DNA from: an uncultured Clostridia bacterium
Lineage (GTDB): Bacteria > Bacillota > Clostridia > TANB77 > CAG-508
NCBI GenBank assembly: GCA_948805675.1
Contig: CAQIBN010000001.1
Coordinates: 115,141-179,140 of the forward strand
Direction: 5' to 3'
DNA: 64,000 bases
The notes beneath the pieces were generated by a model, which searched no databases, was not told the DNA's origin, and worked only from the letters and a program-made list of their open reading frames with translations. This document shows positions 28,666 to 61,005 of the stretch, piece by piece (position 1 is the first letter of the stretch; the number at the start of each line of letters is the position of its first letter). Made by a program: the position numbers and the translations under genes.

Positions 28666-28762
28666 AATTGTATACAATTTTTTTAAAATTGGCACACCAA
28701 CATTTAAGTGGTCTGTAAGAGGATTAATTAAGAAACAAATATGAATCCAACCCATTATTGTT
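28666..28762 (+). repeat. interspersed ~100-nt element, copy A (upstream of pyrG)
   Basis: AATTGTATACAATT palindrome, T-run, AAAATTGGCACAC, TGTAAGA, ATTAATTAAGAAA, CCCATTATTGTT. Confidence 0.7.
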
Positions 28763-28935
28763 GTATATATAGTTATTATTAATTGAAAATGCCTTGAGAT
28801 AAAACTAATTATTTATAGATAATAATGAATTATTAAGTAAATGAGTACAGTTATTTTAATTAACTATAGATTATAAATAGAATTAGATTAAAGTAGAAAA
28901 GATTGCGGTAAAGGAAGAATAAGGAGGATTGTTTA

Positions 28936-30534
28936 ATGAATACAAAGTACATATTTGTAACTGGAGGAGTGGTATCAGGACTTGGTAAAGGAATAACTGC
29001 TGCATCTTTGGGAAGATTACTTAAAAATAGGGGGTATAAAATTACTATTCAAAAATTTGATCCATATATAAATGTAGATCCTGGAACAATGAATCCCTGT
29101 GAACATGGAGAAGTATTTGTAACAGATGATGGGGCAGAAACTGATTTAGATTTAGGTCATTATGAAAGATTTATTGATGAAAATTTAACAAAAAATTCAA
29201 GTATAACTACAGGTAGAATATATTCAGAAGTAATCGAAAAAGAAAGAAGAGGAGATTACCTAGGAAAAACTGTTCAAGTAATTCCACATATCACTAATGC
29301 TATTAAAGAAAAAGTATATAAATTTAATGAAACAGATATTGATATTGTTATTACAGAAATTGGTGGAACTGTAGGAGATATAGAAAGCCTGCCATTTTTA
29401 GAAGCTATTAGACAAGTTGGAATAGAGCAAAATGATGAAGACGTTATATATATTCATGTTACATTACTTCCATATATAGAAGGTTCTAATGAGCTTAAGT
29501 CAAAACCAACACAACATTCTGTAAAAGAACTTCAAGGATTAGGGATTAAACCAGATATTTTAGTTTGTCGTTCACAAATACCAATACCAGAGGGAATGAA
29601 AGAAAAAATGGCTTTATTTTGTAATGTTAAAAGAAGTCATATTATAGAAAACTCAACAGTAGAAAATTTATATGAGGTCCCATTAATGCTAGAAAGAGAA
29701 GGATTGGCAGAAGTTGTATGCAATAAGTTAAGATTAGAAAATAAAAAGCCTCAAAATGCAAAATGGGAAGAAATGATTGAAAATATTAAAAGTATAAAAG
29801 ATGAAGATGTAAATATAGCAATAGTTGGTAAATATATTAGTCTTGAAGATTCATATATATCTGTTATAGAAAGTTTAAAACATGGAGGGTTTGCAAATCA
29901 TGTTAATGTGAAAATTGAACTTATTGATTCAGAAACAATTAAAGAAGGAAATGTAAAAGAGATTTTAGGAAAGTATAATGGAATATTAGTTCCAGGAGGT
30001 TTTGGAAATAGAGGAATAGAGGGAAAATTAGAGGCTATAAAATATGCAAGAGAAAATAATGTACCATTTTTAGGAATATGTTTAGGAATGCAAATGGCAG
30101 TTATAGAATTTGCTAGAAATGTTGCTAAAATAAAAGATGCAAGTTCTGCAGAGTTAGATGCTAAATGTAAAAATCCAGTTATTCATATTATGGAAGAACA
30201 AAAAGATATTAATAAAAAAGGTGGAACAATGAGGCTTGGAGCATATCCATGTATTATAAAAGAGGGAACTTTAGCAAGTAGAATTTATGGAGAAGCTGAA
30301 ATTTCAGAAAGACACAGACATCGTTTTGAATTTAATAATGATTATAAAGAAATGCTAGAAGAATATGGACTTATTGCATCTGGTACATCACCAGATGGAA
30401 GTTTAGTAGAAATTGTAGAATTAAAAAATCATCCATTCTTTATAGCAGGACAATTTCATCCAGAATTTAAGTCTAGACCAGATAGACCAGCACCTCTTTT
30501 TGTGGAGTTTGTGAAAGCTTGTAATAATAAATAA
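28936..30534 (+). CDS. pyrG: CTP synthase
   Basis: Full-length 532 aa with glutamine amidotransferase Cys (GICLGMQ); no in-frame CGG. Confidence 0.95.
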
Positions 30535-30810
30535 ATACTAAAAAAGATAAATGTTATTACTTACATATCTAGTGATGCTAAATGACGATGTAGATTACCA
30601 AGAGATTATTAGTATAGTATGATTTATAATATTTGTATAATAAATGCTAAATGATATTTTTTAGAATTTATTAAAATTTATTAAACTTGGGTTATGAAGG
30701 TTCAATATAAAAATTCGAATAGAATACTAGTAAAATGTTAAAAAATGTGATATAATGTACATATTCTGCATTATTGTGGGGTAAATCTTATGAAAGGAGG
30801 CATCAAAATT

Positions 30811-31122
30811 ATGAATGATGCCAAAAACCGGCCGTTAGAAGATCTTTTGGCTTGTGGAAAAACATTTGAAAGGCTTTCAGAAAAAATTGCCAAAGGACAT
30901 GTTTTTCGAGTTATGCTGACAGAAGACGAGAGAGGAAGCAGTGGATTTATTTTCCTGTTTCCTGACTCTGAGATTTTGAAGCATAAACACTATAATGACT
31001 GGGAGGAATATACATTCCCTGACGGTCGTGTAGAAAAGTGTGCGATTGGACAGTCTCACCAGTTGAAAAATCAGACAGGTAAACTGCTTGTTGTACACTT
31101 CGCAAAACATAGGCTTTTGTAA
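30811..31122 (+). CDS. small cupin-like protein in a compositionally foreign (about 42% GC) islet
   Basis: Cupin motif 1 HKHYNDWEEYTFPDG (HxH...E...G) and motif 2 GQSHQLKN; RBS AAAGGAGG; extended -10 TGATATAAT upstream; contains in-frame CGG at 30829. Confidence 0.45.
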   Translation: MNDAKNRPLEDLLACGKTFERLSEKIAKGHVFRVMLTEDERGSSGFIFLFPDSEILKHKHYNDWEEYTFPDGRVEKCAIGQSHQLKNQTGKLLVVHFAKHRLL

Positions 31123-58590: not shown

Positions 58591-58627
58591 AAAGATTGTA
58601 GTTTGAAACATCAAACTACAATCTTTT

Positions 58628-60782
58628 TTATATAAATATATTCCAAATTAAATTTGTACAAATACAAATTAAGATTCCACATATAGTTGGGAGTGCAAAA
58701 GCAATTAAGCTCCATTTAAGCTTTCCAGTTTCTTTTTTTATTGTTATTAATGTTGTACTACATGGAAAATGTAACAAAGTAAAAATCATCACATTAATTG
58801 CTGTAATTAATGTCCATCCATTTTGTAATAATATCTGCCCAATAGCAAAATTATCTTCTAAACCTACTAAAGTACCTGTTTGCATATAACTCATAAGAAT
58901 AATAGGAAGTACAATTTCATTAGCTGGTAGACCTAAAATAAATGCTGTTAAAATATAACCATCTAATCCCATTAATCTAGCAAAAGGGTCAAAGAAATTA
59001 GCAACATATGTTAAAATACTAATATCATTAAACTGAATATTGGCAAATAACCAAATTATAATACCAGCAGGTATGGCAACACTTATTGCTCTACCTAAAA
59101 CAAATAGTGTTCTATCAAAAATAGAATGTATAAAAACTTTGCCCATTTGAGGTTTCCTATAAGGTGGAAGTTCTAACACAAATGAGGATGGATATCCTTT
59201 TAATATTGTTTTAGATAAAATTTTAGATATAAATAGTGTCATTACAATTCCAAATATTACAATAGCTAAAACTGCAAAAGTAGATAAAAGAGAAGCATTA
59301 AAGCCAGACGCTAAACTACTAATAAATATCATTGATACTGTTATTAAAAAAGGAAATCTACCATTACAAGGTACAAAGCTATTGGTTAAAATTGCAATTA
59401 ATTTTTCACGAGGGGAATCTATAATTCTACATCCAATAACACCAGCAGCATTACATCCAAACCCGCATACAAATTGTAAGTGCTTGCTTTCCGAGAAGTA
59501 CATGCTTTTCTAAAGTATTTATCTAGGTTAAAGGCTATACGTGGTAAATATCCTAAATCTTCCATAATAGTAAATAGTGGAAAGAAAATTAACATTGGCG
59601 GTAACATTACACTCACAACCCATGTTAAAGTAGAGTAAACACCATCTATTAAAATACTACTTAACCATGTAGGAAATGAAAGTAAATTTAATAATATAGT
59701 AATTTTATCTTGTAAATATCCAAAAAAGCTAGAGAGTAGCTGAGAAGGATAGTTAGCTCCTGTAATTGTTAGCCAAAATATAGTAGCTAAAAATAATAAC
59801 ATAATTGGCAAACCAAATGTTTTTGAAGTTAGTATTTTATCTATTTTTCTATCTCTTTGATTATATTTACAATTATCATATTTACAAATATCTGTACAAA
59901 TATTTTCTGCTGTGAATAATATAGTTGATACAATTTTGTCTTTAAATTTGTCATTTTCTAAGTTAGAATCATTTAGTAAAGCTCTATAATATAATAATTT
60001 TTTATTTAATTCTTTGTTGTTTTTTAATGTATTATAAAATATATTTTTGTCTATACAATTTATTATTTTTTCATCATTATCTAAAAGTTTTAAAATAATC
60101 CACCTAGATAAATATTTATGCTCTTTTGGAATTATTTTTTCGACTTCAGGTTGTAATTTTGCTATTGAATCTTCTATTATATTCATATATGTTGGGAGAT
60201 GGGGAGTGGTAACTAAAGTTCCTTCACATACTTCCTGAACTTTTTTCATTAAATTATTTAAAGTTTTCTTTTTTCTAGCTATAGTACCAACAACAGGTAC
60301 TCCTAATGTTTTTTCTAATAATTTTAAATCTATATGAATACCCTTTTTTTCAGCTTCATCTAATAAATTAACACATACTACTAATTTATTTGTAATTTCC
60401 ATAGTTTGATAAACTAAATTTAGGTTTCTTTCTAAACATGTTGCATCTACAACAATAATGCTTGCATCAGCATCTCCAAAACAAATATAATCTCTTGCAA
60501 TTTCTTCTTCTTCAGAATTTGACATTAATGAATATGTACCAGGAATATCAACTAATAAGAAATTTTCTTTATTATAATTAGTAATACCAGTAGCGTTAGA
60601 AACTGTTTTTCCGAGGCCAATTACCAGTATGTTGATGCATACCAGTTAAATTATTGAAAATTGTAGATTTACCTACATTCGGATTTCCGTCCAATAGCTA
60701 TTGTATATTTACATTTATTTTTAAGCTCATTTAAATCATCATTTAGTAGCCTTGTTCCAGTAGAGCTACTTGTTAAACCCAT
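58628..60782 (-). CDS. feoB: ferrous iron transporter FeoB; frame interrupted four times at in-frame CGG codons
   Basis: +1 shifts at coding-strand CGG (plus-strand CCG near 60688, 60612, 59491, 59463) restore G1 motif [18 protein letters not shown](T)S-G-K and M-G-FGCN gate motif; RBS GGAAGGTGA. Confidence 0.85.
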
Positions 60783-60904
60783 AAAATCACCTTCCTATAG
60801 TAGTATATGAAAATGAATAATAAATGTGAAAATTGTTTTTTAGGTAAAATGTGTGTAGATTAAATTAAAATTAGTTTGTTAAGAAAAATAATAAATGTTT
60901 AAAT

Positions 60905-61005
60905 AATTGTACACAATTTTTTTCAAAAATTGGCAAACGAAAAATTGAACATGGGCTGTAAGAATATTAATTAAGAAGCAAATATAAATTCAGCCCATTA
61001 TTGTT
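60905..61005 (+). repeat. interspersed ~100-nt element, copy C (in the feoA-feoB intergenic region)
   Basis: Same conserved blocks; internal GGGCTG...CAGCCC stem. Confidence 0.7.

Follow-up and report, generated by a model that had tools for sequence, protein, structure and literature searches.

Why should one and the same short sequence recur, always in the same orientation, at unrelated places of a bacterial chromosome? The question is raised by a stretch of 64,000 nucleotides, called the window below (assembly GCA_948805675.1, contig CAQIBN010000001.1, positions 115,141 to 179,140 of the forward strand), from an uncultured Clostridia bacterium of the CAG-508 lineage. An element of about 100 nt had been noticed in it three times, and it had been proposed from the letters alone (the original prediction) that this was a small mobile or structured-RNA repeat rather than a gene-specific riboswitch. 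The repeat is a real, structured, multi-copy family that is so far uncatalogued. Its copies have spread with unrelated flanks and in one orientation, they adjoin terminators, they are present in some relatives and absent from others, and they form arrays and decay; they have no inverted ends and no clear target duplication. On balance, and with modest confidence, we take the repeat to be a non-autonomous mobile element that would be copied as a single strand and recognised at its hairpins by an enzyme whose gene lies elsewhere, and that inserts 3′ of a hairpin followed by a T-tract.

Structure of the repeat unit

With a covariance model built from family members, all three predicted copies were recovered on the + strand at 80-88 bits (E 4e-13 to 9e-15), with cores at 28666-28763, 56031-56130 and 60905-61006 that are 78-82% identical pairwise; a scan of the whole 64-kb window gave nothing beyond these three at E ≤ 1. 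The blocks said to be shared are all there, namely AATTGTAYACAATT with its T-run, AAAATTGGCACAC, TGTAAGA, TTAATTAAG and the GGGCTG..CAGCCC stem. The outline of the element had to be redrawn, however. The flanks, described as unrelated, hold a second common module, H, in the ~60-70 nt upstream of the core (81% identical between copies 1 and 2, decayed at copy 3), and the real unit of H plus core is therefore 160-175 nt long rather than ~100. The ATTGT near the end does not pair with ACAAT at the start; the partner of the 3′ ATTGTT(C) is GAACAAT, at core positions 34-40. Besides the three copies, a fourth, strongly decayed one (22534-22706) had been missed.

The full unit consists of three consecutive hairpins, H, B and A. 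Hairpin H has a 19-bp stem, of which the loop-side arms (ATAGGAAAG and CTTTCCTAT) are conserved while the outer part covaries (as in TATATTATAGG/CCTATAATATA, TCTACAATAGG/CCTATTGTAGA and TTCTTGAATAGG/CCTATTCAAGAA), and its loop is either 3 nt or ~32 nt long, the longer form containing a conserved GAGTAAAATTTAAC. Among 16 diverse copies, 94.5% of the cells of this stem are paired, against 42-47% when the partner is slid, and 10 of the 19 pairs are altered on both sides. Hairpin B (TGTAC-A-CAATTTT..loop..AAAATTG-GCACA) is nearly invariant and includes a conserved A·C opposition and a bulged A; one subfamily has TTCACAGAAAATTGC..GCAATTTTCGCGAG in its place, with all pairs compensated and the A·C retained. 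Hairpin A combines a conserved outer stem, GAACAAT/ATTGTTC, which in window copy 1 is compensated to CAACA../..TTGTTG, with an inner stem whose sequence is free and whose complementarity is constant (GCGGGCTTT/AAAGCCCGC, CGGAAAGCC/GGCTTTCCG, GAGGCATGA/TCATGCCTC). In the core helices B and A taken together, 93.6% of cells are paired versus ~45% when slid, 9 pairs are altered on both sides, and the observed covariation was matched by none of 500 shuffles. Compensatory changes, which had been suggested as a check on the original prediction, are thus found in all helices.

The unit is AT-rich and carries neither a GTAG nor a CGTC tag. Terminal inverted repeats are lacking, the left end (T)ATAATAGGAAAG and the reverse complement of the right end, AGAACAATAGC, having only AATAG in common. 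No conserved small open reading frame (ORF) is present in the unit, and its variable region has indels and alternative sequences.

Distribution, gain and decay

The search for further copies turned up dozens in related metagenome-assembled genomes (MAGs) and metagenomes: the family comprises no fewer than 60 distinct copies, spread over 7 or more Clostridia MAGs plus gut metagenomes. A pattern scan of one genome per species found it only in uncultured Clostridia MAGs, with ~14 matches in the MAG DXVF01. The covariance model gave 46 matches on those MAG loci, diverged copies included, and 35 further ones on metagenome contigs, mostly labelled or likely human-gut. Eleven 175-nt units in DXVF01 have a median identity of 95% and a maximum of 99.4%, with flanks at the background of 54%. 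The window species (25% GC) is also represented by GCA_948573755.1 and several Logan assemblies, in which the same copies are present, and metagenome strains of the copy-rich species likewise have identical copies at identical sites. Solo H modules elsewhere are rare, weak matches to the arms being almost all chance promoter or coding sequence. Four loci (L059 at 4700-4835, L060, L053 and L046) hold variants without H and the AATTGTACAC block, in which the host terminator hairpin and T-run are fused to ..AAAAATTGGCACAC and the host T-run stands in for the 5′ arm of hairpin B. Such forms go back either to deletion from one T-run to another or to the insertion of a shorter unit.

No catalogued family accounts for the repeat. 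Rfam searches of the whole window at gathering thresholds, also proposed as a check, gave 0 matches; at E ≤ 10, copy 3 gave nothing and the canonical unit only noise of 8-17 bits. No relevant match came from blastn of the canonical unit against phage and plasmid collections, from viral contigs scanned with a 19-nt core pattern, or from a full-text literature search for the palindrome. The genes next to the copies are unrelated housekeeping genes, with no shared upstream or downstream gene, and a gene-specific leader was rejected on that ground. The preference for a mobile or structured repeat over a riboswitch is thus borne out by further copies, by covariation, by the want of a common downstream gene and by presence and absence in close relatives.

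The last of these could be followed at the window sites themselves. Copy 1 is present and identical in strains at 97% PyrG identity and absent at 96, 95, 90 and 84%. Filled and empty sites agree in the left flank as far as ..TCTTTTTTTATTTA; from there the window has ~160 nt extra (ATAGGAAAG..ATTGTTG) with a clean junction and no target duplication, or at most TA; the relative at 96% has a solo, diverged H at this site. Copy 3 is absent in a relative at 94% RecQ identity, where a 45-nt hairpin like the tip of hairpin A persists, and present at the same place, with an intact H, in one at 82% (L044), whereas the spacer of copy 2 is replaced or missing in relatives. Ageing copies deteriorate: window copies 1 and 3 have broken stems, the L044 copy has lost part of its hairpin B, and the fourth unit of the window can hardly be made out. 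In L044 (1700-4100), moreover, purA lies inside the feoA-feoB spacer between two direct repeat units. It is equipped there with a long leader behind a TTGACA/TATAAT promoter and with a terminator of its own, and the placement suggests repeat-associated gene relocation.

The landing site

Most copies begin directly 3′ of the hairpin and T-tract of the upstream gene, as behind the purA terminator in L044. When the 56 nt upstream of 29 independent sites were folded, the median was -14.1 kcal/mol, compared with -3.7 kcal/mol for 785 intergenic control windows that likewise end in T4AT; folds of -10 kcal/mol or below were reached by 72% of sites and 11% of controls (Mann-Whitney p=4e-13). The remaining 28% of sites have no terminator. 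The orientation of the unit relative to the terminator is constant, and 15 of 21 units are co-oriented with the upstream gene. The G-rich strand carries 52 copies and the C-rich strand 6, a bias confounded by this co-orientation with genes; the GC skew of the window + strand is +0.13 to +0.38.

The left junctions are mostly a T-run plus AT (..TTTAT), overlapping the H stem. Head-to-tail arrays of the form H-core-H-core occur in L001, L018, L023, L028 and L031, and there the internal units follow ..TTGTTC instead, the second H beginning right after it with no T-run carried along. Since array-internal units bring no T-run, the T-run is read as part of the target and not of the element. At the other end the element finishes with the GC-rich hairpin A and the T-rich TTGTTCT, and so resembles its own target; the right flanks in one MAG start with TA in 8 of 13 cases.

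The copies in the window

The gene contexts, read here and in relatives from Pfam domain tables, are those that had been described. Copy 1 lies upstream of pyrG, which begins 170 nt downstream. Its target is a terminator-like host hairpin (AGATTTAAAAAA..TTTTTTAAATCT) with T-tract at 28551-28603 (+; minimum free energy -12.1 kcal/mol), and relatives without the element have the same hairpin. The H module follows at 28604-28665 (+), recognised by its sequence and by H covariation and made up of TAATAGGAAAG, a 32-nt loop with GAGTTAAGGTTAAT, and CTTTTCTATTATAG plus AAAAT. The core (28666-28763, +; 80.2 bits, E 3.9e-13) comprises hairpin B at 28669-28696 and hairpin A at 28698-28763; in the latter the outer pair is compensatorily changed to C..G and the inner stem has partly decayed.

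Copy 2 sits between the convergent DUF2752 and RecQ-like genes, behind the terminator of the DUF2752 gene (GTGGGTTCTGT..ACAGGACTCAT plus ATTATTTT; 55936-55966, +), which at the same locus in L037 folds at -17.9 kcal/mol. Its H module (55967-56030, +), 81% identical to that of copy 1, has a decayed 3′ arm, and its core (56031-56130, +; 86.1 bits, E 2.6e-14) is divided into hairpin B (56034-56062) and hairpin A (56064-56130). Copy 3 is in the feoA-feoB spacer, antisense to both genes. By sequence comparison its H module (60838-60904, +) is decayed, that at the orthologous site in L044 being intact, and its core (60905-61006, +; 88.5 bits, E 8.6e-15) has hairpin B at 60908-60937 and hairpin A at 60939-61006, with C>A changes that break the outer stem. 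To its right, at 61007-61085 (+), a decayed H-like module with the loop motif at 61030 is probably the remnant of a second array unit. The fourth unit, H plus core (22534-22706, +), has 65% identity in repeat family D3 and falls below the covariance-model threshold. Copies 1, 3 and 4 are in 5′ or divergent regions.

A possible mode of spread and its alternatives

If the repeat is mobile, it may be copied as a single strand, most likely of DNA, in the "peel and paste" style of HUH/Y1 enzymes. The hairpins would then be gripped by an enzyme acting in trans, with the invariant, imperfect hairpin B as its recognition site. The 3′ end of the element, with hairpin A and the T-rich TTGTTCT, would mimic the target, which would explain how a second unit comes to land directly behind a first. 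After insertion the copies would decay neutrally. The extra terminator hairpins, or an outward promoter-like site in the H loop, might plausibly have side effects. In this scheme we infer the single-stranded intermediate, the HUH-type enzyme, the recognition of hairpin B and self-mimicry as the cause of the arrays.

Several points weigh against such a mobile element. A tblastn search with an IS200 TnpA (an approximate query) over 0.83 Mb of loci gave no match, and inspection of the ORFs upstream of every copy found no TnpB-like gene or other transposase. Recent movement is unsupported in the copy-rich species, where strains share their copies and sites. Hairpins of the IS608 type sit some distance inside the ends (PMC3201880), whereas here they abut them. 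The association with terminators and the leading-strand bias could reflect selection against harmful insertions and the orientation of genes rather than a mechanism, and the invariance of hairpin B across species, like the -10-like hexamer before the core, would also fit a transcribed RNA.

Such an RNA is the subject of one rival explanation, which we regard as unlikely: the copies would be small-RNA genes, with a promoter in H (its -10 in the 3′ arm) and a ~105-nt transcript reaching from AAUUGUACAC to hairpin A and the U-rich UAUUGUUCU as its own terminator, the single-stranded GCACAC and the A-rich loops being functional. The boundaries of conservation match a possible transcript of this kind, a TATAAT/TATTAT-like hexamer stands 6-8 nt before the core in most copies, including some without an intact H, and the compensated helices, the GC-rich stem and T-rich tail of hairpin A and the A-richness of the loops on the + (element) strand all agree with it. 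There is, however, no convincing -35; a promoter scan placed no promoter reading rightward at the H/core junction, and its one recurrent promoter-like match (TTTACT-17-TATTAT in the long H loop) faces away from the core; hairpin A goes unrecognised in a terminator scan. In every copy it is the reverse strand that has the more stable fold, largely an effect of U-richness, and hairpin A shows no excess of G·U over A·C (18 versus 21). With these near-equal counts in hairpin A and just one invariant A·C standing out in hairpin B, the wobble pairs were set aside as uninformative about an RNA strand. Copies at orthologous sites decay (the truncated hairpin B in L044, the broken stems of window copies 1 and 3), which favours a selfish repeat over a small RNA, and near-identical spread with unrelated flanks would still need a mobility mechanism. 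At one locus, seen in a MAG (L005, ~352-409) and in an independent gut-metagenome contig (L069, ~70-150), the 32-nt H loop is exactly inverted relative to all other copies. The loop holds a -35-like TTTACT 17 nt from a TATTAT in either arm, and the inversion would turn the promoter-like site towards the core. Phase-variable inversion was considered for this and rejected, the inverted allele being fixed in two strains at the one locus with no sign of switching.

Other readings dispense with transposition of this kind, or replace its machinery. A selected cis-acting module at gene 3′ ends, reinforcing or insulating termination or protecting mRNA ends as REP sequences do, and spread by recombination or gene conversion, would account for units directly behind terminators and between convergent genes and for the very stable hairpins; read on the other strand, hairpin B runs into a U-rich tract, and copy 2 could terminate the converging RecQ-like gene. 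We nevertheless find it improbable, for 28% of sites have no terminator, copies 1, 3 and 4 are in 5′ or divergent regions, the same genes in close relatives do without the unit, copies decay, and the role would not need so strict a sequence in hairpin B. Little credence can be given, too, to a terminator-homing element of a new type, a 165-nt non-coding unit, neither ribozyme nor transposase, that would find its hairpin and T-tract partly by pairing its own A-tracts with the T-tract and whose 3′ end would copy the target for stacking. In canonical copies the H stem does reach into the host T-run, and in L059, L060, L053 and L046 the T-run of the host terminator pairs directly with the AAAAATTGG of the element; movement would be in trans, by a HUH enzyme or a reverse transcriptase, for instance one from a class C (IIC) group II intron, or the unit might be an orphan guide-RNA-like scaffold of the IS200/IS605 world. 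A cassette for site-specific recombination, Xer-like or integron-like, with H as the recombination site between which units or genes are exchanged, seems very improbable. In its favour, the first 15 nt of Staphylococcus aureus dif (PMC11040001) recur exactly as the H arm ACTTCCTATAATATA, two direct units in L044 enclose purA, which has a promoter and terminator of its own, relatives have a decayed or solo H at the site of copy 1, and the loop of one H is inverted. The two dif-like arms, however, are turned inside-out compared with dif, the distance from H to the AATTGTACAC block is not fixed (7, 9 or 22 nt) so that no 28-bp dif-like site results, solo H modules are rare, and Xer elements integrate at one site per chromosome rather than at dozens. 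A dif/Xer site proper (two inverted 11-bp arms around a 6-8-bp centre, with outer ends ACTT../AGTT..) was rejected on its geometry, as the 15-nt identity covers one arm and the centre only (PMC11040001).

Comparison with known elements

Among known repeats, palindrome-associated transposable elements (PATEs), derivatives of the insertion sequences (IS) IS200/IS605 (PMC3201880, PMC5027513, PMC7290912), are likewise non-coding and multi-copy, and like the repeat they show neither terminal inverted repeats nor a clear target duplication. PATEs and the repeat both have hairpins at either end, among them an imperfect palindrome in which a mismatch and a bulge are conserved, and one orientation of insertion; copies of the repeat mostly adjoin a short T-rich sequence (often ..TTTAT) and lie mostly on the leading-strand sequence, which may be further likenesses. 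In contrast to them, the repeat came without a cognate IS or TnpA in the 0.83 Mb of loci searched with the approximate query, its hairpins abut the ends instead of lying 10-20 nt inside, its left and right hairpins are dissimilar save for a GGAAAG/CTTTCC motif in one subfamily, and the IS200/IS605 family is not known to prefer a target hairpin. Assignment to the PATE class would hinge on a cognate IS.

Repetitive extragenic palindromes (REP) and the bacterial interspersed mosaic elements (BIME, REPIN) handled by RAYT Y1 transposases (PMC3333891, PMC3733652) are also extragenic palindromes at gene 3′ ends and between convergent genes, clustered, modular and possibly served by a HUH enzyme in trans, but REPs are 20-40 nt long, GC-rich and marked by a GTAG/CGTC tag, whereas the present unit is 160-175 nt, AT-rich, with three different hairpins and a fixed orientation to the terminator. 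The bcr1-bcr3 repeats of the Bacillus cereus group (PMC6542083) share with it the restriction to Firmicutes, a size of 100-400 nt, structure, intergenic position, multiple copies, features of mobile elements, a TTTAT motif and the lack of an assigned enzyme; in the repeat TTTAT is frequent only at the left junction, and the likeness is one of descriptions, not of compared sequences. Class C introns (PMC1702495, PMC4748821) also lie in one orientation immediately downstream of the stem-loop and T's of an intrinsic terminator, but with 165 nt against at least ~600 nt for a six-domain ribozyme, and with neither ribozyme domains nor a reverse transcriptase, the repeat would resemble them in its landing site only; Intron_gpII of Rfam gave no match in the tested units even at E ≤ 10. 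Classical miniature inverted-repeat transposable elements (MITEs), such as Correia, RUP, ERIC and BOX, resemble it in being small, structured, dispersed and without coding capacity; some are modular, and they may bring a promoter or terminator with them. They have terminal inverted repeats, plus a TA duplication in Correia and RUP, whereas the repeat lacks the former and shows no clear duplication.

The architecture thus appears most like that of PATEs and REP/BIME, the host range and style like those of the bcr repeats, and the choice of target like that of class C introns. In the defining tests the repeat came out as neither classical MITE nor REP, neither group II intron nor dif site, and as no member of any Rfam family. 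Smaller likenesses were discarded as well. The -12 element of a sigma-54 promoter (TGGCAC-N5-TTGC) is absent on reading the sequence; the resemblances to a PurBox (CGAACAAT) and a CodY box (AATTTTCWGAAAATT) are not double-stranded operators, because their partners or spacing vary and the helices covary; and the hammerhead-like CUGUAAGA is not conserved in the main subfamily and has no Rfam match.

Other features of the window and its relatives

Another three-copy repeat lies at 2153-2227, 5376-5450 and 11770-11844 (TTTCAAAAAnnnTTCAAAATCATTTCATTGTTTTT, with a TATAAT-like box ~15 nt later); it resembles a common promoter or upstream element, and the region appears to be a conjugative or surface-protein one. 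A different element, found just downstream of a repeat copy in L026 (6325-6555), is a ~230-nt long inverted repeat (TGCAGTTCAGACAAGCTAACCTAATAGTAGGTATATGGTATATTTTAAGA .. reverse complement) of MITE-like or foldback form. Long ORFs with internal tandem or dispersed repeats (periods of 234 nt and 42/63 nt), typical of surface or ESX-type (EsaA-like) proteins, occupy 39171-42356 and 52303-54400.

The feoB gene (58628-60782, -) is split, here as in L037 and L043-L045, into a FeoB_N ORF of 368 aa and a FeoB_C ORF of 204-291 aa, in different frames or with a gap of 150-180 nt and with an apparent start at 60782 in yet another frame; since the split is kept in all relatives examined, it is no sequencing error of the window. 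In one strain of the window species (L042, 9337-10966) a gene for a large serine recombinase (Resolvase/Recombinase/Zn_ribbon_recom, 494 aa) replaces the 5′ part of feoB and feoA, and is probably a strain-specific integrated element. Beside spo0A, a tyrosine-recombinase gene (50337-51140, +) is divided, in other strains too, into a SAM-like N-terminal ORF of 86-100 aa and a catalytic ORF of 161 aa. Divergent from pyrG, a PNP_UDP_1 (nucleoside phosphorylase) gene (28110-28415, -) encodes 101 aa here and in close relatives versus 174 aa in the 84% relative, and is probably a truncated remnant.

Meaning of the family

The repeat adds a new family to the small non-autonomous bacterial repeats, a known kind of element, its unusual trait being terminator homing with an end that mimics the target, and it brings an uncatalogued repeat to poorly studied, uncultured gut Clostridia with 25% GC. 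Without a model for it, annotation runs the risk of mistaking units for small RNAs, riboswitches or regulatory leaders, as might happen with a unit "upstream of pyrG" or with one "inside feoAB". To be placed so strictly behind intrinsic terminators is unusual and so far known for class C group II introns, and a 165-nt element whose end imitates its target is a compact system in which to study terminator hairpins as integration sites. Units are, moreover, markers of hot spots at which intergenic DNA is turned over and rearranged, as in the relative in which purA has been relocated between two of them.

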